In this document: positions 2,921 to 11,785 of the stretch, in pieces
Layout: every line of letters starts with the position of its first letter
How positions within the stretch are numbered: position 1 is the stretch's first letter
Virus record (IMG/VR): IMGVR_UViG_2585427739_000006
Origin: a virus
Lineage: Duplodnaviria > Heunggongvirae > Uroviricota > Caudoviricetes
Length of the DNA stretch: 11,861 nucleotides
Direction: 5' to 3' (one strand)
Program-made: the position numbers and the translations under genes
The notes under the pieces: generated by a model
Told to the model about the DNA's origin: nothing
Seen by the model: only the letters and a program-made list of their open reading frames with translations
Databases searched by the model: none

Positions 2921-3112
2921 TTAAAGACCTGCCGGGATTTCGATATTATCCTGGTGAATAACTTTATCGACCGGGTAACAGTTACCGGGAATTTTCTGTT
3001 CGGTTGCTGCAGTCATACACTCCTGCATTGTCCTGTGAACACTGACTGCAATATCAACTGGCTCTCCGGAAACAAGAAAAACTGTCAGAACAAGCGCAAA
3101 TGCTGAATTCAT
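2921..3112 (-). CDS. ydfD: YdfD-like small membrane/lysis protein (63 aa) with N-terminal hydrophobic segment
   Basis: ATG at 3112 with AAGGA 8 nt upstream; protein MNSAFALVLTVFLVSGEPVD... matches my recollection of Qin YdfD. Its start overlaps the dicB stop in an ATGA arrangement. The ORF-track start at 3166 lacks a ribosome-binding site. Confidence 0.6.
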   Translation of the reverse strand: MNSAFALVLTVFLVSGEPVDIAVSVHRTMQECMTAATEQKIPGNCYPVDKVIHQDNIEIPAGL

Positions 3113-3297
3113 TGTGCACATCCTTTTGGCATCAGACGTAAACGAGCCAGCATTGAAACAATGCATATTTTATTTAATAGCTCCCGTTCTTGTTTTCTCT
3201 TGTTAATGGCATCTTCAGTAAATACAGGGTTACTGATAGTGACACCAATTTCAAAACAACCTTCAGACGTATTAACGTTTGGTAATAACGTTTTCAT
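3109..3297 (-). CDS. dicB: DicB cell-division inhibitor (62 aa)
   Basis: ATG at 3297 with GAGGA 7 nt upstream; translation MKTLLPNVNTSEGCFEIGVTISNPVFTEDAINKRKQERELLNKICIVSMLARLRLMPKGCAQ matches E. coli K-12 DicB as I recall it. The longer 97-aa ORF-track version has no ribosome-binding site. Confidence 0.75.
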   Translation of the reverse strand: MKTLLPNVNTSEGCFEIGVTISNPVFTEDAINKRKQERELLNKICIVSMLARLRLMPKGCAQ

Positions 3298-3466
3298 TAT
3301 CGCGTCCTCAACAATGAATTTTGTGATGCAGTGCCTGGTGCCTCCAGGTGACGTTAACCAGTTAACAATTAACGCCGGATACAGAGAATCCACCCATAAC
3401 ACTGTTTTTGGTTTTAACTGTTCCGCGTGCGCTTAGCCGCATTCACCGCATCACAAAATTCACTTT

Positions 3467-3524
3467 AAAAACGGCGGCAGAGCAGTCACGGAGTAAAACT
3501 GATACCGCCAAACGTCACCAGAAA
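3467..3524 (-). ncRNA. dicF: DicF small RNA (ftsZ-targeting sRNA of the dicB operon), 53 nt plus 3' U-run
   Basis: Minus-strand sequence TTTCTGGTGACGTTTGGCGGTATCAGTTTTACTCCGTGACTGCTCTGCCGCCG followed by TTTTT. This agrees at 52 of 53 positions with the K-12 DicF sequence as I remember it, and it lies immediately upstream of dicB as in Qin. Confidence 0.75.
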
Positions 3525-3643
3525 ATTGATAACAGAGGGCGTTGCAGCGGGGTTGTCACTTAAGCGTATGGTCAACCTGACAACTCGGTGTCCTCAACGG
3601 GGAAGAAATACCCCCGCCATACTTACCGCCGCGCCATTTCGCG

Positions 3644-3720
3644 GGTTGCCACAACCGGAAGCGCACGGTCGAATTAAATTTAACGACACCGTACAGTGAG
3701 ACGAACTTCGCCGTGCGCTT
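3644..3720 (-). promoter_or_regulatory. Structured untranslated leader upstream of dicF: 10-bp perfect inverted repeat with nested palindromes (candidate RNA processing or regulatory structure)
   Basis: AAGCGCACGG (3659..3668) pairs with CCGTGCGCTT (3711..3720) around a 42-nt loop that itself contains GTCG/CGAC flanking the palindrome TTAAATTTAA (3674..3683). A small GGTTG/CAACC hairpin lies at 3644..3656. No convincing ORF in 3525..3799 on the minus strand. Confidence 0.3.
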
Positions 3721-3799
3721 TCGTGTTGTGTGCCTGCTTTTAACCACGTCAGGCGAGGTGGTATCCTTCTTATTCCGAATAACCAAGAAGGAAATCTAT

Positions 3800-4000
3800 A
3801 TGACTAAAGAAGAATTTGTCTCTTATATTTTTGATAAAACGGTTGAAATGTATGCCGCTACTTACGGGTCCTGTAATCCTCTGAATAAACCAGAGGGGAA
3901 AGATGATTTCGACAAAATTTACCGCTTCTTGGAGGACCGCTATATCAAAAGGTTAGAGGACGCAGGGATCAAATCCCCAGTGAAGTCACCATTGTCCTGA
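3800..4000 (+). CDS. Hypothetical protein, 66 aa, AT-rich gene antisense to the leftward operon
   Basis: ATG at 3800 preceded by AAGGA with a 7-nt spacer; first 100 bp are about 37% GC. No recognisable motif. Its 3' end overlaps the convergent 121-aa gene by 32 bp. Confidence 0.45.
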   Translation: MTKEEFVSYIFDKTVEMYAATYGSCNPLNKPEGKDDFDKIYRFLEDRYIKRLEDAGIKSPVKSPLS

Positions 4001-4334
4001 GAACTTGCAGGACGTCATGATCGTAACTTCCATCCAAACCGCGACGGCAAATTGCTTCTCGTATTACCGGAAGCAGTTCGCTGGAAATCTCGGTGCATAT
4101 TTCACCTGCTAATACGCCTGGCTCAAGTGAGAATATTGGTGAACTTACGGTCTTGGTCTCGACAGTTTCAGAGTCAGTGCCAACATTATAAAGCTCAACG
4201 AAAGCGGTCTTGATTTTCCGGGCCAGATCTTTTGCTGGCTCGCTTGCAATATCTTTCCCGATTTCTCGCAGCACAGAATGCAATGTATGAGCTGCTGTTT
4301 TCTGTACATCAGACGGTAAATCTTTAAATTCCAT
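3969..4334 (-). CDS. Hypothetical protein, 121 aa, at the position where a cI/DicA-type repressor would be expected
   Basis: ATG at 4334 with GAGG 6 nt upstream (the ORF-track start at 4346 has none). No obvious helix-turn-helix. Divergent from the rightward operon across a 212-bp intergenic region. Confidence 0.5.
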   Translation of the reverse strand: MEFKDLPSDVQKTAAHTLHSVLREIGKDIASEPAKDLARKIKTAFVELYNVGTDSETVETKTVSSPIFSLEPGVLAGEICTEISSELLPVIREAICRRGLDGSYDHDVLQVLRTMVTSLGI

Positions 4335-4546
4335 CGTCAGCCTCATCAGTCAGTGTTTCTGGCTAACCAGCAACGCGCGCCAGATTCGGTTTTAAACGTT
4401 TTGCTTTTGGTATATGTCATCGCGGTGAACGTACCGTCCTGGTTGGGGAACACGCCACATACAGGAGGCATCTGGCGGCGAGCTTCTGTATGATCCCAAG
4501 GTTTATGACGAATATCGTAAGACGAAGCGGGCGGGGCGGTTGAACA

Positions 4547-5068
4547 ATGAAAATCACTCCTGAACAGGCTCGTGAGGCTCTGGATGCCTGGATATGTCGA
4601 CCAGGAATGACACAGGAGCAGGCGACGATATTAATCACTGAAGCATTCTGGGCTTTGAAAGAGCGCCCGAACATCGATGTTCAGCGTGTCACAGATGAAG
4701 GTGGCGCGGTTGATCAGCGAGCGCTTGGCGTTAATCGAGTGAAGATATTCGAACGCTGGAAGGCTATCGACACTAGGGATAAGCGTGAAAAGTTCACGGC
4801 GCTAGTGCCTGCAATTATGGAGGCTATCCGGATTAATGATTTCAGGTTGTATCGTGAAATTAGTGACGGAAAAAGCATCACGTACATGATCGCCGGGTTA
4901 AACAAAGAATATGGCGATGTGGTGGAGTCCGGACTGCTTTTTGCTGATCCTGCCGTAGTGGATCGTGAAACTGACGAACTTATAGAAAAAGCAATTGCTT
5001 TCAAACTTGCGTATCGACAGCAATACCAACAAAAAGCTGGATGGAATTATGAGCCTTCTTTTTGCTGA
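4547..5068 (+). CDS. YdaT-like protein (173 aa), possible CII-analogous regulator; first gene of the rightward operon
   Basis: ATG at 4547 directly after an in-frame TGA. The segment ...RWKAIDTRDKREKFTALVPAIMEAIR... resembles what I recall of the Rac/CP-933P YdaT family. Assignment is from memory and tentative. Confidence 0.55.
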   Translation: MKITPEQAREALDAWICRPGMTQEQATILITEAFWALKERPNIDVQRVTDEGGAVDQRALGVNRVKIFERWKAIDTRDKREKFTALVPAIMEAIRINDFRLYREISDGKSITYMIAGLNKEYGDVVESGLLFADPAVVDRETDELIEKAIAFKLAYRQQYQQKAGWNYEPSFC

Positions 5069-6014
5069 ACGCCCACTGGTTATAAACACACAGCTTGCGA
5101 TGAAGATTGGCTTAAATGAAGCCATTGTGTTGCAGCAGTTGCATTACTGGTTGAGAGATACCAATTCCGGCATGGAATGTGATGGTGTTCGCTGGATTTA
5201 CAACACAACGGAACAATGGCTGGAACAGTTCCCATTCTGGTCAGAGTCAACGTTAAAGCGCGCGTTTGCAAGTCTGAAAACGCTGGGGCTTTTGCGTTGT
5301 GAAAAGCTCAATAAATCAAAGCGCGATATGACCAATTTCTACACGATCAACTATGGGAACGAGCTTTTAGATGGTGGCAAATTGAACGAATCCATCGGTT
5401 CAAAATGCGCCGCTCCATCAGGTCAAAATGACACGATGGAAGAGGTCAAAATGAAACGCTCCATTGGTTCAAAACGACCCAATGTCATCGGGTCAAAATG
5501 GCCTGATGATCTTACAGAGAATACAACAGAGATTACTACAGAGAATAAAAACACTTTTCGTCCGGAAGCTTCGCAACCGGACCCGCAGACCGCTGAACAG
5601 GATTTTTTAATCCGGAACCCCGACGCGGTTGTGTTTAGTGCGAAAAAACGCCAGTGGGGTAGCAGGGAGGATTTGGCGTGTGCGCAGTGGATTTGGGGGC
5701 GGATCGTGAACCTTTACGAACAGACTGCCAGCGACGATGGAGAGATCATGCGACCAAAAGAGCCTAACTGGACAGCCTGGGCCAATGACGTGCGCACAAT
5801 GCGGATGCTGGATGGCAGAAGCCACAGACAAATTTGCGAAATGTTTGGTCGGGTACAGCGAGATCCATTCTGGGTAAAAAACATCATGAGCCCGTCAAAA
5901 CTCCGCGAAAAATGGGACGAACTGGTCATCCGCTTGGGACGTTCACCTGTACAGCGTTGTGTGAATCATATTTCTGAACCGGATACAGAAATTCCGCCTG
6001 GTTTCAGGGGATAA
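5049..6014 (+). CDS. Replication initiator, lambda O-like (origin-binding), about 321 aa
   Basis: Long ORF containing the iteron array in its middle, as in lambda O, where ori lies inside the gene. Start is uncertain: ATG 5049 has a weak ribosome-binding site; TTG 4995 and ATG 5100 are alternatives. Overlaps the upstream gene by 20 nt. Confidence 0.7.
   Translation: MSLLFAERPLVINTQLAMKIGLNEAIVLQQLHYWLRDTNSGMECDGVRWIYNTTEQWLEQFPFWSESTLKRAFASLKTLGLLRCEKLNKSKRDMTNFYTINYGNELLDGGKLNESIGSKCAAPSGQNDTMEEVKMKRSIGSKRPNVIGSKWPDDLTENTTEITTENKNTFRPEASQPDPQTAEQDFLIRNPDAVVFSAKKRQWGSREDLACAQWIWGRIVNLYEQTASDDGEIMRPKEPNWTAWANDVRTMRMLDGRSHRQICEMFGRVQRDPFWVKNIMSPSKLREKWDELVIRLGRSPVQRCVNHISEPDTEIPPGFRG
5392..5501. 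repeat. Origin iterons: five direct repeats at 23-24 bp spacing
   Basis: TCCATCGGTTCAAAATG (5392..5408), TCCATCAGGTCAAAATG (5415..5431), AGAGGTCAAAATG (5442..5454), TCCATTGGTTCAAAACG (5461..5477), TCATCGGGTCAAAATG (5486..5501). Core GGT(T)CAAAA(T/C)G ends at 5408, 5431, 5454, 5477 and 5501. Confidence 0.78.
5515..5550. repeat. AT-rich block of three 12-bp direct repeats adjacent to the iterons (candidate DNA-unwinding element of ori)
   Basis: ACAGAGAATACA / ACAGAGATTACT / ACAGAGAATAAA in tandem, immediately after the iteron array. Mirrors the iteron-plus-AT-rich layout of lambdoid origins. Confidence 0.55.
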
Positions 6015-6054
6015 GTGTTGATTTCAGGTCATGAGGTAATTTTAAGGAGGACTT

Positions 6055-6453
6055 GTGGCAAAAGTTTTTACACAGGAAGAGCGGGAAAAAATTAAAGAGC
6101 AGGTGGTCGAACTTGTGCGCCAGAGCGGTCGCGAGACATTACGACAGTTGGAAGCTAAAACAGGTGCGACAAGATATCTGATGAGCATTCTTGCCAGAGA
6201 GCTGGTTGCCAGTGGTTATGTATACAACTCCGGCTACGGGTTATTCCCGTCTGAACAGGCACGAAAGGACTGGCAAAATGCCCGCAAAAAACTCTCTAGG
6301 GCGAAGGTGAAGAAACCCGCTGTGGTTGATCCGGACCTTATCTGGTCACTACCTGATGGAGAAATACGTCGCTACGACAGTCGTCTAAACATAATCTGTC
6401 GCGAGTGCCGGAAGAGCGAAGTTATGCAGCGCATACTGGCATTTTATCAGTGA
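6055..6453 (+). CDS. Hypothetical protein, 132 aa, possibly a winged-helix DNA-binding protein
   Basis: GTG start at 6055 with AAGGAGG at 6044..6050 (short 4-nt spacer). The segment ETLRQLEAKTGATRYLMSILARELVASGYV looks helix-turn-helix-like. No family recognised. Confidence 0.55.
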   Translation: MAKVFTQEEREKIKEQVVELVRQSGRETLRQLEAKTGATRYLMSILARELVASGYVYNSGYGLFPSEQARKDWQNARKKLSRAKVKKPAVVDPDLIWSLPDGEIRRYDSRLNIICRECRKSEVMQRILAFYQ

Positions 6454-6545
6454 AATTTTCGTTATTTATAGACGTAACTAGATTAAAGAGCATTAGTTCA
6501 GATGTGAATTGACATTTTCACGGCACAGGATTGAGCTAGCGTGGT

Positions 6546-6571
6546 TGTCTGCTTTGCGTCAAAAGCAGATA
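6546..6571. other. Hairpin in the 181-bp intergenic region, with a nearby consensus -35 hexamer
   Basis: TCTGCTTT (6548..6555) pairs with AAAGCAGA (6562..6569) around a 6-nt loop, with no U-tract after it. TTGACA lies at 6509..6514 but no good -10 follows at 16-18 bp. Confidence 0.3.
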
Positions 6572-6634
6572 TTACCAGATTTAGACATCTATTCCCGATA
6601 GCCCTGCTCTGATGCCACACTCTGTGCTATTTTC

Positions 6635-7096
6635 ATGACCCCAATAAAAATATTTATGACTATTGCTGATTTCAAACGGCCTAAATTGGAGCTCCCAAAC
6701 GGGGCAAACAAACTACTACTGCACTCTTGCTGTGCTCCATGTTCCGGTGAAGTGATGGAGGCGCTTCAGGCCTCGGGAATCGACTATACCATCTTTTTCT
6801 ACAACCCGAACATTCATCCTCAGAAAGAGTATTTAATTCGTAAGGATGAGAATATTCGCTTTGCTGAACAACACGGCGTGCCATTTATTGATGCTGATTA
6901 CGACACAGACAACTGGTTTGAACGTGCCAAAGGAATGGAATGGGAACCCGAGAGGGGGATCCGTTGTACCATGTGTTTTGACATGCGTTTTGAGCGGACA
7001 GCGCTGTACGCTGCTGAAAATGGTTTCAGTGTGATCAGCAGTTCACTGGGCATTTCACGCTGGAAAAATATGCAGCAGGTTACCGTCACTGGATAA
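6635..7096 (+). CDS. QueH/DUF208-like protein (153 aa), possibly C-terminally truncated
   Basis: Contains [20 protein letters not shown] and [11 protein letters not shown], which match the signature motifs I associate with the DUF208/QueH family. It is shorter than typical QueH and ends at a TAA that is in frame with the next gene. No ribosome-binding site at either candidate ATG (6635, 6656). Confidence 0.5.
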
Positions 7097-8771: not shown

Positions 8772-9296
8772 TTATTGTTTAACCCATAATAGTTCATTGA
8801 CATTGAATCCCAACTTTTGAGCGGTACGCACATAGTCTGCTTTTACATTATCTGGAATAGTTTGGGTCCTTGCCAGAATCCATAGGTATTCTCTGTTCGG
8901 ACCACTGACAAGAGCATACTTATACTCATCATCCAGTTTGATTACATTATAGCCACCATAGAAGGGGCCAAAAAACGAAACTTTCAACGCTGCAGTTTTA
9001 GTATCTCCAGTAAAGTATGCTTTACCTTCGCTCTCGCTCCATTTGTTTTTCGTTGGATCGTATCCACGGTTAAGTACGCGAATCCCTCCGTCGTTCCGTT
9101 TTTCATAAGTAGCGCTGACCTGTTCCAGACCACGTTCGAACCAGTTCTCGAGGCGAGCTATTTCATACCATTTTCCGAGGTAGCGGTTGGCGTCAAAATT
9201 TGTAATCGGCTGCACACCTTTAGGTGGTGTCGGGGCCTTACATGCTATAAGAGTGAAAGAGAGTGCAATGCCAGTCAACACAGGCCATAACTTCAT
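8772..9296 (-). CDS. blc: Bacterial lipocalin Blc-family outer-membrane lipoprotein (174 aa), diverged from E. coli chromosomal Blc
   Basis: Signal peptide with lipobox LIAC (Cys19). Conserved lipocalin segments NFDANRYLGKWYEIAR, GKAYFTG, ALKVSFFGPFYGGYNVI and YLWILART. AGGA 8 nt upstream of the ATG at 9296. Confidence 0.88.
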   Translation of the reverse strand: MKLWPVLTGIALSFTLIACKAPTPPKGVQPITNFDANRYLGKWYEIARLENWFERGLEQVSATYEKRNDGGIRVLNRGYDPTKNKWSESEGKAYFTGDTKTAALKVSFFGPFYGGYNVIKLDDEYKYALVSGPNREYLWILARTQTIPDNVKADYVRTAQKLGFNVNELLWVKQ

Positions 9297-9356: not shown

Positions 9357-10970
9357 TTATTTATTAGTGAGTACTACGTTCCATGGCAGGAGTTCGTCAA
9401 CTCGGTTGGAAGGCCATTCCGGCAGTACGCTCAGGATATGGCGCAGATACGCTTCCGGATCGATACCATTCAACCGGCAGGTGCCGATCAGCCCGTACAA
9501 CAGTGCACCACGCTCGCCGCCGTGATCGCTACCGAAGAACACGTAATTTTTCTTTCCGAGACAGACTGCACGAAGCGCTCTTTCCGCTGTGTTATTGTCC
9601 GCCTCCGCCAGACCGTCATCACAGAAGTTGCACAACGCAACCCAGTGCTTCCTGATATACCGGAACGCATCTCTCAGACGGCATTTTTTCGATAACGTGT
9701 GTTCTTTCTCCTGCATCAGCTTATACAGGGAAGTCAGTAGCGGTTTACTCTGCATTTGCCTGACCGCCAGGCGTTCAGACACCGGCAACCCGCGTATTTC
9801 GTGCTCAATGGCGTACAGTTCGCCGATTAGTTTCAGTGCTTCTTCCGCCGTCGCGCTTTTGGTACTGATATATACATCGTGGATTTTGCGCCGCGCATGA
9901 GCCCAGCATCCTGCTTCCGTCAACGCGCCGCCTTCACGTTCGGCACTGAACAGCCGATCGTAACCTGCGAACGCATCTGCCTGCAGGATACCCCGGAAGG
10001 GACGAAGGTGTTGCTCCGGATGTTTACCCTGATGGTCCGGTGAGTAGGCGAACCAGACCGCCGGAGGTTCTGGCGAACCGGCATTTCGGTCATCCCGGAC
10101 ATACGTCCAGATATATCCTGTTTTCGCCTTCTTCCTGCCCGGTGCCAGTACTTTTACTGGTGTGTCATCAGTGTGAACCTTGCGGGTGTTCATCACATAA
10201 CTGTACAGGGCATCATTCAGCGGCGTCATTAACTGGCAGCACGCATCAACCCAGTTGGAGAGTAAGGCACGGCTCAGTTCGACACCCTGGCGGGCAAAGA
10301 TTTCACTCTGACGATACAGTGGCAGGTGTTCGCAGTATTTTCCCGTTAACACGCGGGCAAGTAACCCCGGGCCCGCGATACCACGCTCTATCGGACGGGA
10401 TGGTGCCGGTGCTTCAACGATGCAGTCACATTTTGTACAGGCTTTTTTTACCCGTTCTGTGCGGATCACTTTCAGGGCGCTGCTCACCAGTTCCAGTTGT
10501 TCTGCGCTGACTTCCCCCAGATAATCCAGCTCACCGCCACACTCCGGGCAACAGCTTTCTTCAGGCTCCAGGCGGTATATTTCACGGGGGAGATGTGCCG
10601 GTAACGGACGACGATGGCGCGACTGTCGCAACTGGCGGGGAACCAGCGGGTCATCCTCACGCCCACTGTAACGATCGCTTTCCTGCTCGCGTTGTTTCAG
10701 CAGGGCTTCAGCCTGTTCAACCTCACGACGCAGTTTTTCAGAACGGGTTCCGAACAGCATCCGGCGCAGTTTTTCTATCTGAGCCCGCAGATGCTCTATT
10801 TCCCGTTCATCTTCTTCGATCTTTTCTTCGGCACGTGCCAGTGCAGAGCGCAGGAAGGCCTCCGTCTCTTCAACCAGACTCAGTTGCTGGTCTTTCTGAC
10901 GGAGGGCTTCAGCCTGCTCAGAGAGCAGCCTTTCCAGCTCAGCGATGCGAATGAGGTATTTCTGACTCAT
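9357..10970 (-). CDS. IS66-family transposase TnpC (537 aa)
   Basis: Long ORF with a coiled-coil/leucine-zipper-like N-terminus, a CxxC...CxxC zinc-finger region (CCPECGG...CTKCDC) and an acidic catalytic core, as in IS66 TnpC. Confidence 0.9.
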   Translation of the reverse strand: MSQKYLIRIAELERLLSEQAEALRQKDQQLSLVEETEAFLRSALARAEEKIEEDEREIEHLRAQIEKLRRMLFGTRSEKLRREVEQAEALLKQREQESDRYSGREDDPLVPRQLRQSRHRRPLPAHLPREIYRLEPEESCCPECGGELDYLGEVSAEQLELVSSALKVIRTERVKKACTKCDCIVEAPAPSRPIERGIAGPGLLARVLTGKYCEHLPLYRQSEIFARQGVELSRALLSNWVDACCQLMTPLNDALYSYVMNTRKVHTDDTPVKVLAPGRKKAKTGYIWTYVRDDRNAGSPEPPAVWFAYSPDHQGKHPEQHLRPFRGILQADAFAGYDRLFSAEREGGALTEAGCWAHARRKIHDVYISTKSATAEEALKLIGELYAIEHEIRGLPVSERLAVRQMQSKPLLTSLYKLMQEKEHTLSKKCRLRDAFRYIRKHWVALCNFCDDGLAEADNNTAERALRAVCLGKKNYVFFGSDHGGERGALLYGLIGTCRLNGIDPEAYLRHILSVLPEWPSNRVDELLPWNVVLTNK

Positions 10971-11000
10971 GGCCGTTTTTATAATGCGGTCAGGAGTTTT

Positions 11001-11351
11001 TTACAACATTGTCAGTGCGTTAAGGCGGGATGTTTTTGGCTGACGCCAGTCCAGCTTATCGAGGAGCATTGCCAGTTGCGAGCGGGTAATGGATATCTTA
11101 CCGTCACGCACCGCAGGCCAGATAAACTGACCTTCCTCAAGGCGTTTGGTGAACAGGCACAGACCATCAGCATCAGCCCACAGGATTTTAATCGTGTCTC
11201 CCCGTCGGCCACGGAAGATAAACAGGTGACCGGAGAAGGGGTTATCATCCAGCACATGCTGTATCTGCTCCCCCAGACCGTTGAAGGATTTACGCATATC
11301 AGTAACGCCGGCAACGAGCCAGATACGGGTACCTGATGGGAGTGAAATCAT
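11001..11351 (-). CDS. IS66-family accessory protein TnpB (Orf2, 116 aa)
   Basis: 116-aa ORF whose ATG (11351) overlaps the tnpA stop as ATGA. The sequence MISLPSGTRIWLVAGVTDMRKSFNGL... is typical of IS66 Orf2. Confidence 0.88.
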   Translation of the reverse strand: MISLPSGTRIWLVAGVTDMRKSFNGLGEQIQHVLDDNPFSGHLFIFRGRRGDTIKILWADADGLCLFTKRLEEGQFIWPAVRDGKISITRSQLAMLLDKLDWRQPKTSRLNALTML

Positions 11352-11785
11352 CGTCCCCTCCCGGTCAGCTCACGGATCAACACCGTGAGCAGCTCTGGTG
11401 AAGGATTTTCCAGCATCATTTTACCGTAATGGAATTCCACATGGCAGGAAGCTGCACAAGCACCTGATAATGCCTCCGGAGCAGGAGCATCTGTAGCACA
11501 GCGCGGGGTGTCGATAAGTTCCACTGGAACCAGAGTCGGAGAGGCCGGAAAAGATTGTGATACTGTAGGGCCTACAATAGTTGGAGGCATTCTACGAGAA
11601 ATACGTCCTTCTCTTTGCCAGAGGCGTAGCCATTTAAAAATCAGGTTGTTATCAACGCCATGTTCCCGGGCCAGTTGTGCAACATTGGCATTTGGTTTCG
11701 AAGCCAGTTCAACCATATGAAGTTTAAATTCATTAGAAAATATCCGGCGGGTTCCGGAGCGCCAGTCTGTAGGTTTATCCATCAA
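11348..11785 (-). CDS. IS66-family TnpA (Orf1, 145 aa), helix-turn-helix protein
   Basis: First ORF of the IS66 operon, starting 76 bp from the window edge; N-terminal helix-turn-helix-like region. Confidence 0.85.
   Translation of the reverse strand: MMDKPTDWRSGTRRIFSNEFKLHMVELASKPNANVAQLAREHGVDNNLIFKWLRLWQREGRISRRMPPTIVGPTVSQSFPASPTLVPVELIDTPRCATDAPAPEALSGACAASCHVEFHYGKMMLENPSPELLTVLIRELTGRGR

Follow-up and report, generated by a model that had tools for sequence, protein, structure and literature searches.

The DicF leader of a Qin-type prophage: a probable RNase III processing hairpin followed by a conserved structured RNA domain

The window analyzed here, an 11,861-nt stretch of Caudoviricetes DNA (IMG/VR record IMGVR_UViG_2585427739_000006), is a Qin/mEp460-type lambdoid prophage. 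Upstream of its dicF gene, positions 3525–3741 of the minus strand very probably constitute a conserved untranslated DicF leader composed of two modules, an RNase III hairpin and a folded RNA domain. The leader is an ordinary, widespread part of Qin-type prophages. The role of RNase III is already published, having been mapped in 1990 and re-mapped in 2023, and is not a new idea; the conserved domain may be the one new part of the leader.

Results

A leader common to K-12 and the majority of E. coli Qin-type prophages

DicF was identified by its match to Rfam RF00039 at 3472–3523 on the minus strand (72.5 bits against a gathering score of 48). The 53-nt form of the sRNA occupies 3472–3524 and corresponds to the K-12 53-nt form (3524–3472); only the last base differs from K-12 DicF in the alignment, and the U-run of the DicF terminator extends to 3467. 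Downstream on the same strand lie dicB (3109–3297) and then ydfD, both annotated in identical genomes, with exo and xis following.

Window positions 3300–3741 align with K-12 at ~ 94% identity, and the same value holds for 3525–3741 against the K-12 ydfC–dicF spacer, both hairpin arms included. Homology to K-12 ends at 3741, which is 217 nt upstream of DicF, and the upstream end of the block common to K-12 and most E. coli Qin-type prophages falls at 3731–3741 (minus strand). An earlier sequence-only reading of this DNA had proposed this comparison and had treated 3525–3799 as one leader. The comparison retains 3525–3741 as the conserved leader and assigns 3742–3799 to a different mosaic module.

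At least 80% of the 3525–3741 leader was found in 4,082 of 5,426 complete E. coli genomes. In 115 related loci, the nearest upstream ORF on the same strand lies 226–587 nt from DicF, whichever ORF it is; long untranslated leaders are thus the norm at these loci, and variation is confined to the cargo upstream of 3741. In the window, the untranslated minus-strand stretch continues to 3968, the stop of a 121-aa ORF (3969–4334, minus strand) located between the leader and a truncated ydfA-type DUF1391 gene (4346–4471, minus strand). The leader does not stand in for missing ydfABC genes in controlling the operon, contrary to the earlier suggestion: in the window, other cargo takes the place of ydfB and ydfC alone, the truncated ydfA-type gene is present, and in K-12 the homologous leader comes after ydfC, which ends ~ 340 nt before DicF.

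The window and the Qin prophage of K-12 have the hairpin, the DicF gene, the terminator and the downstream dicB–ydfD in common. They differ in upstream cargo (the 121-aa ORF and an antisense 66-aa ORF here, ydfB and ydfC in K-12) and in the apical-loop haplotype of the hairpin, which contains TTAAATTTAA in the window and TTAAATTTTCG in K-12. The 10-bp stem of the hairpin is perfect in the window but has one G–U pair in K-12, and dicA and dicBp are deleted in the window copy.

When the leader was scanned with Rfam 15, no family was found; DicF alone reached the gathering score, and the only other matches at E ≤ 1 were a sub-threshold match to STnc100 and a chance match, both downstream of DicF. 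Two short direct repeats at an equal spacing of 286 bp gave rise to the idea of an ancient tandem duplication relating the leader to the dicF–dicB spacer. We rejected this idea, as the local alignment score of 18 against a shuffle mean of 16.5 represents chance similarity.

The sole sizeable ORF on the minus strand of the leader (3556–3786, TTG start, 76 aa) matches phrog_8854 with E = 2.7e-26, and some phage records annotate ORFs here, as a small protein gene would predict. However, the frame is not conserved among 83 near-identical variants: it is broken or shifted in many of them by frameshifts and in-frame stops, and the same conserved DNA is read as two different amino-acid sequences. The ORF has no Pfam match, and RefSeq annotates nothing at this position. 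We regard a small protein gene in the leader as scarcely credible, and phrog_8854 most likely groups ORFs called by chance on conserved RNA. The earlier description of a stretch of ~ 275 bp with no convincing ORF was thus accurate.

A long hairpin forms the upstream module

The perfect 10-bp inverted repeat noticed in the sequence-only reading was recovered with a repeat finder (3659–3668 with 3711–3720), as were the accompanying GTCG (3668–3671) and CGAC (3684–3687) between the repeat arms, the TTAAATTTAA palindrome (3674–3683) and a further small hairpin. The 10-bp repeat alone is only modestly unusual: perfect inverted repeats this long or longer arose in 18 of 1000 dinucleotide shuffles of 3525–3799. 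We then folded the minus-strand RNA, as had been proposed. The 91-nt hairpin at 3645–3735 has a folding energy of −38.3 kcal/mol (z = −4.5), and none of 300 shuffles folded as well. Within it, the perfect stem is the upper part of an imperfect duplex of ~ 22 bp (3650–3673/3707–3730), which is made up of 6 + 2 + 10 + 4 bp with two bulges and one mismatch.

We delimit the processing hairpin as 3650–3730 (minus strand) on the basis of fold, repeats, arm conservation and compensatory changes. Its lower stem (3725–3730/3650–3655) is followed by a bulged A3724, the pairs 3722–3723/3656–3657 and an A × C mismatch (3721/3658). Above the mismatch, the perfect stem (3711–3720/3659–3668) leads via a bulged A3669 to the pairs 3707–3710/3670–3673 and an apical loop spanning 3674–3706. 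The length of the duplex agrees with the ~ 20–22 bp of coaxial helix generically expected of an E. coli RNase III substrate.

Among 99 DicF-type variants, the hairpin arms are near-invariant (diversity 0.01–0.06) and the apical loop (3673–3707) is hypervariable (0.27), with a diversity resembling that of third codon positions of dicB and ydfD. The same basal duplex was obtained on folding 9 of 9 apical-loop haplotypes. No compensatory changes in the hairpin were found in DicF-type loci, which are too similar to one another; double changes do not occur among them. The changes present were G–U-compatible ones and an about equal number of disruptive single changes; when these were counted by hand in a strand test of wobble-compatible versus disruptive single changes, the difference was not significant by variant type.

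Comparison with related families was more informative, since compensatory change across phage families is evidence that cannot be obtained from near-identical E. coli copies. A long hairpin that abuts the downstream domain and ends in GUUGUG is present in 203 of 229 loci containing that domain. Its layout (6–8 bp, a 1 × 1 mismatch, 10–11 bp) is kept although the upper-stem sequences differ, as seen for AAGCGCACGG/CCGUGCGCUU, AAGCGCAUUCC/GGAAUGCGCUU, ...CACAG/CUGUG..., GAGAGCAUUG/CAGUGCUCUC and UGAGGGCAUUU/AAGUGCUCUCA. In an alignment of the arms only, which was assembled from predicted folds and is therefore biased towards pairing, 98.2% of cells were paired and both sides had changed in 6 of 18 pairs (25 cells). 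The covariation score was reached by 0 of 500 shuffles and slid controls paired in at most 47% of cells, within a diversity narrowed by the fact that all related loci were found via exact matches to short conserved patterns. In phage phiSTEC1589-Stx1c, the hairpin stands immediately before a DicF-like sRNA with nothing between them, an arrangement that fits the hairpin being a portable 5′-processing signal.

We also considered pairing of 3659–3667 with AAGCGCACG downstream of DicF (3426–3434), which would form a long-range stem like those in rRNA processing. It amounts to 9 bp only and is missing from both the MFE and centroid structures, and we judged it to be due to chance.

The published RNase III cut probably maps to the 3′ arm of the hairpin

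In K-12, DicF occurs as species of 190 nt and 53 nt (PMC10448788, confirming Faubladier 1990), and RNase III makes the 5′ end of the 190-nt species (PMC10448788, citing Faubladier 1990). The 190-nt species is gone in cells without RNase III and builds up on RNase E inactivation, and the 53-nt species requires RNase E (PMC10448788). The same study found no internal promoter for DicF, obtained RT-PCR products covering ydfA to dicF, and by primer extension placed the RNase III cut "between positions 813 and 814" (PMC10448788). A 72-nt DicF species has been reported as well (PMC5069750, PMC9438474).

To locate the cut in the window, we used two counts. The K-12 promoter (TTGACC-17-TAATCT) lies between dicA and ydfA and has a predicted start near 3670 in the coordinates of L003; positions 813/814 counted from this consensus dicBp start correspond to L003 2858|2857. 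Counting from L003 2857, the terminator U-run ends after exactly 190 nt. The alignment is gap-free downstream of the loop, and L003 2858|2857 equals window 3657|3656, the position on which the two counts agree. We infer that RNase III cuts between 3657 and 3656 on the minus strand, leaving the 5′ end of the 190-nt DicF species at 3656, from the published sizes and from a numbering whose origin is left undefined in PMC10448788. Position 3656 is predicted to be paired, in the 3′ arm of the duplex and beside the A × C mismatch between the stems. A partner cut on the other arm that leaves a 2-nt 3′ overhang would lie at 3721|3720, at the foot of the perfect stem.

The published processing in K-12, the near-identical sequence and the position of the cut inside the 3′ arm favor the earlier suggestion that the duplex is an RNase III substrate. 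We consider it highly probable that the hairpin is the RNase III site; this was shown experimentally in K-12 and is supported here by homology, size mapping and covariation.

RNase E generates the 5′ end of DicF at 3525|3524 (minus strand), with the RNase E and 53-nt assignments taken from PMC10448788 and PMC5069750. The linker that connects the folded domain to DicF (3525–3540, minus strand) holds the AU-rich RNase E site CAAU|UUUC, which on our own reading appears to fit the RN|WUU preference of RNase E, and shows almost no variation across 99 variants. Folding of either the precursor or the 190-nt product predicts that the site lies in a 6-nt loop and is unpaired.

Directly downstream of the DicF terminator is a second long hairpin (3315–3462, minus strand) with arms at 3444–3462 and 3315–3333 (19 nt, 95% complementary); the MFE structure lengthens this duplex to ~ 29 pairs. 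We infer that this hairpin corresponds to the 3′ RNase III site published as giving rise to the 72-nt DicF. The genome-wide list of RNase III sites in PMC5371410 already includes a dicF–dicB site, and names none but this downstream one for DicF.

The body of the 190-nt precursor is a conserved structured domain

Positions 3541–3655 (minus strand), the body of the 190-nt DicF precursor, form a conserved structured RNA domain as judged by covariation and by the covariance model described below. Six helices were identified: a closing helix (3648–3655/3541–3548), 3640–3644/3629–3633, 3625–3628/3586–3589, 3612–3616/3598–3602, 3578–3584/3552–3558 and 3575–3577/3563–3565. In an alignment of 24 diverse representatives, 93.9% of cells were paired in this structure and both sides had changed in 14 of 32 pairs, including 4 of the 8 pairs of the closing helix. 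This covariation was reached by 0 of 500 shuffles, and slid controls were 33–61% paired.

We built a covariance model (R1) from the domain alignment of the 24 representatives. It scored 141.6 bits for the window, 140 for phage Ayreon, 127 for Salmonella phage F1055 and 96 for phage P1, and gave one match per locus in 79 viral contigs. At the nucleotide level, window positions 3533–3655 are conserved separately in phages Ayreon and cdtI and in Stx2c phages (87% identity), in Salmonella phage F1055 (81%) and in P1, P7 and SJ46 (77–83%). Nucleotide diversity is 0.03 in the domain versus 0.20 in dicB, and overall lies 5- to 10-fold below that of dicB or the apical loop. Rfam has no family for the domain segment, and ARAGORN detected no tRNA-like element in it. 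A 2026 preprint on Pas sRNAs does not mention DicF, and one of its supplements contains none of four motif strings.

The sequences downstream of the domain fall into 14 clusters, most of which comprise a short variable stretch and then a terminator hairpin. A GGCGG...CCGCC base and a U-run characterize the terminator in most clusters, and that of P1 is a different stem. DicF is the commonest cluster, and two locus types lack a cassette altogether.

The "dicF-like region" of phage P1 (AF234172/AF234173), located just downstream of the C1-controlled promoter Pban and upstream of tRNA genes, resembles the window in having the folded domain, a short variable stretch and an intrinsic terminator. 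It differs in that the C1-controlled promoter takes the place of the RNase III hairpin, the closing helix and the DicF seed are absent, and tRNA genes follow.

The hairpin and the closing helix compete for the same sequence

GUUGUG (3650–3655) pairs with CACAAC (3725–3730) in the hairpin and with GCUGCAAC (3541–3548) in the closing helix of the domain. As GUUGUG belongs to both helices, the complete domain fold is possible only once the hairpin has been cut or opened. In the modeled precursor, the lower stem of the hairpin has a probability of ~ 1 and the closing helix of 0. For the 190-nt product, the MFE structure includes the closing helix, whose probability is then ~ 0.58. The conserved fold is thus that of the processed RNA.

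These observations suggest a sequence of events in which RNase III would cut the polycistronic dicBF transcript in the hairpin, generating the 190-nt DicF 5′ end at ~ 3656. Cleavage might then trigger refolding, as the modeled structures suggest, to give a stable precursor whose 5′ end would be base-paired from the second nucleotide. RNase E would subsequently cut at 3525|3524 to release the 53-nt DicF ending at the terminator. In 5′-end-dependent decay by RNase E, a base-paired 5′ end should be stabilizing, and a paired end of this kind would agree with the build-up of the 190-nt species. The refolding idea does not extend to all copies, since those of the P1 type have neither the hairpin nor the closing helix.

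The window copy lacks the operon promoter

Compared with intact relatives, the window lacks 837 bp at a deletion junction located at 4460–4462. The deletion takes the first codons of the ydfA-type gene, the dicA-type repressor gene, dicBp and the 5′ part of a cro/dicC-type gene; the loss of dicBp follows from the deleted intergenic region being the one that holds dicBp in K-12. We found the same junction in 14 complete E. coli genomes. E. coli IBS28 / phage mEp460_ev081 exemplifies the intact arrangement and E. coli strain 127 the deleted one. A scan of the minus strand from 3700 to 6640 detected no consensus promoter, and the DicA-repressed dicBp upstream of ydfA, from which the operon would be transcribed, is absent from the window copy. 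The element is intact, but as dicA and the only known promoter of the operon are deleted, the window copy is probably silent. The missing dicBp bears on expression of this copy and not on the identity of the element.

The outer flank belongs to another module

The 58 bp at 3742–3799 are a module-specific flank outside the conserved DicF leader and a separate mosaic module; they are shared in full by ~ 10 of 99 variants and as far as 3768 by 23 of 99. The flank contains a perfect 8-bp hairpin (3764–3771 with 3785–3792), the 3′ arm of which, read on the plus strand (AAGAAGGA), is the Shine–Dalgarno region of the ORF at 3800. This 66-aa ORF (3800–4000, plus strand; phrog_34441, hypothetical protein WP_000159335.1) runs against the operon.

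In our reading, 3742–3799 is the 5′ flank of the ORF at 3800 rather than a piece of the DicF leader. A more specific version, in which the flank comprises the promoter and 5′ UTR of this ORF with a hairpin masking the ribosome-binding site, is a serious candidate that in our estimate falls a little below an even chance. The distinct mosaic module, the placement of AAGAAGGA 8 nt before the ATG and within the hairpin arm, and the annotation and phrog match of the ORF all favor it, and a possible weak extended −10 promoter (TTAACC-16/17-TGgTATCCT, ~ 3739–3766) can be made out by eye. However, no promoter passes the scan, the ORF is without known function or Pfam match, and the flank would also be transcribed within the minus-strand operon.

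Discussion

The hairpin at 3650–3730 has much in common with classical RNase III hairpins with an internal loop, such as those of the phage T7 R1.1 type, of rRNA and of the lambda N-leader or sib. Like these, it consists of about two helical turns with a small internal mismatch near the cut, and it lies within a polycistronic early phage transcript from which it frees a downstream RNA. Its sequence is unrelated to theirs.

Two other roles had been suggested for the hairpin in the sequence-only reading, an operator and an attenuator, and neither is supported. Palindromes to which a repressor of the operon might bind at the DNA level do exist (TTAAATTTAA, GTCG/CGAC and the 10-bp repeat), but TTAAATTTAA belongs to one haplotype group only and lies in the hypervariable apical loop, and the repeat arms are 42 bp apart, inside the transcribed region and ~ 1 kb from the operon promoter in intact relatives. 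Moreover, the other families conserve pairing and not sequence, a pattern indicative of RNA rather than of DNA bound by a protein, and we consider an operator very improbable. The same degree of improbability attaches to a transcription attenuator or intrinsic terminator in the leader. A stable hairpin within a long leader is what such a role would call for, but there is no U-tract after either hairpin (the sequence following the stem is CCGGUUGUGGCAACCC), a terminator scan of 3250–4700 found none, and the K-12 RT-PCR transcripts cross from ydfA to dicF (PMC10448788).

The main alternative to a 5′-stabilizing function of the domain is that 3541–3655 acts in cis as a processive antiterminator of the HK022 put or Bacillus EAR type, allowing RNA polymerase to pass the DicF terminator and continue into dicB, ydfD, exo, xis and int. 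Like those RNAs, which are structured, ~ 70–120 nt long and found in phage or operon leaders upstream of terminators in systems without an N-type protein, the domain immediately precedes a strong intrinsic terminator and is part of long early operons, namely lambdoid early-left operons and P1 ban, where it is downstream of the C1-controlled Pban. In intact relatives, the interval from the repressor to dicF shows no obvious N-like gene, and the two locus types that retain the domain without an sRNA cassette suggest a role at the level of the operon. On the other hand, the helix layout differs from that of put and EAR RNAs, and a search of 20–32 kb of HK022 (immunity and early region) with R1 and filters off gave nothing better than E = 1.9; we rejected homology to put on this result. 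The domain is present in a single copy per locus and absent from the rightward operon, and a large share of K-12 transcripts end at the DicF terminator. Taken on its own, antitermination appears unlikely to us, if less so than an operator or an attenuator.

We favor the view that 3541–3655 is not a spacer but an uncatalogued covarying RNA domain, and we put forward a wider proposal tentatively, at a confidence clearly short of even. In this proposal, lambdoid early-left operons and the P1 ban leader would share the domain as a platform onto which interchangeable "seed plus terminator" sRNA cassettes are placed, DicF being one of them. It would fold only after RNase III removes the hairpin, and the 190-nt RNA would be the functional unit, serving as a 5′-protected stabilizer, as an RNase E guide or as a cis-acting antiterminator.

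The sequence-only observation with which this analysis began rediscovered a known processing site and matters little as it was written. The loss of repressor and promoter bears on whether strains with this deletion can make DicF and DicB. As the conserved body of the 190-nt "long DicF", the domain would offer a testable reason for the accumulation of that species, and it may provide a handle on the expression and exchange of prophage sRNA cassettes.

Two long hairpins flank DicF

Directly after the DicF terminator, we found a 19-nt inverted repeat with 95% complementarity (window 3315-3333 with 3444-3462), which lengthens to a duplex of about 29 pairs reaching up to the ribosome-binding region of dicB. 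The duplex is consistent with the 3' RNase III site described in the literature as the source of the 72-nt form of DicF. With this second long hairpin downstream of its terminator, DicF is therefore flanked by two long hairpins.

The same dicF-dicB spacer gave a sub-threshold match to the Rfam family STnc100 (window 3320-3460, minus strand; 34.5 bits vs a gathering score of 47), an observation that also covers two related loci (L132, 1167-1365; L133, 439-646). A 2026 preprint has linked the PasD sRNAs to STnc100. In Shigella phage 75/02 Stx, the spacer stands before kil rather than dicB. Within a single transcript, the 5' part of DicF (GGUGACGUU, window 3511-3519) has a perfect 9-nt complement in the spacer at 3347-3355. 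This pairing was absent from the MFE structure; it could mask this portion of DicF in read-through RNA that has not been processed.

On the other side of DicF, the apical loop of the processing hairpin upstream of the folded domain (window 3673-3707) occurs as at least eight unrelated haplotypes, indels included, within a non-coding block of 430 nt that is otherwise nearly invariant. The adjacent conserved loop segment, GUCGUUAAAUUU (window 3676-3687), is itself invariant.

Reading frames over and around the leader

The DicF leader and even dicF are spanned by PHROG family 8854 and, in phage records, by ORFs called as 'hypothetical protein' (window 3556-3786, minus strand; 4109-4264 in the related locus L002); these seem to be spurious ORF calls on a conserved RNA. 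Oriented against the operon is a 66-aa ORF (phrog_34441, WP_000159335.1; window 3800-4000, plus strand), which overlaps the end of a 121-aa minus-strand ORF by 32 nt. A perfect 8-bp hairpin (window 3764-3792) has the Shine-Dalgarno sequence of the 66-aa ORF as its 3' arm.

A deletion upstream of the operon and other gene content

Comparison with a related locus (L001, 5164-6000) revealed an 837-bp deletion with its junction at window 4460-4462 and a TAC microhomology. The dicA-type repressor gene and the dicBp region have been lost, the cro/dicC-type gene lacks its 5' part, and the ydfA-type DUF1391 gene has been cut down to 41 codons. Among complete E. coli genomes, 14 have the same junction. 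In the deleted copy, the toxic genes dicF-dicB-ydfD are still intact but left without a known promoter. Elsewhere, the window holds a QueH-like ORF (6635-7093) whose match covers only positions 1-126 of the 175 in the profile, a lipocalin (Blc-like) gene (8775-9296) and, 3' of the Q antiterminator gene, an IS66-family element with a TnpA-like HTH protein, TnpB and a DDE transposase (9360-11785).

The folded domain with other sequences at the DicF position

Across related loci, 14 sequence clusters occupy the position of DicF, 3' of the same folded domain (L134, L136, L143, L173, L184, L197, L198, L211 and others). Most are made up of a short variable stretch with a terminator hairpin behind it, and several contain AUUGCUGUGUGUAGU-like stretches. 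The clusters may correspond to named prophage sRNAs. In phage P1 (L135, AF234172), the annotated 'dicF-like region' (686-813) consists of the folded domain and its own intrinsic terminator (GCCCAUCUUCGGGUGGGCGUUUUUU). It begins about 20-35 nt past the C1-repressed Pban promoter, upstream of two tRNA genes. In effect, the ban operon is headed by a free-standing RNA of about 190 nt.
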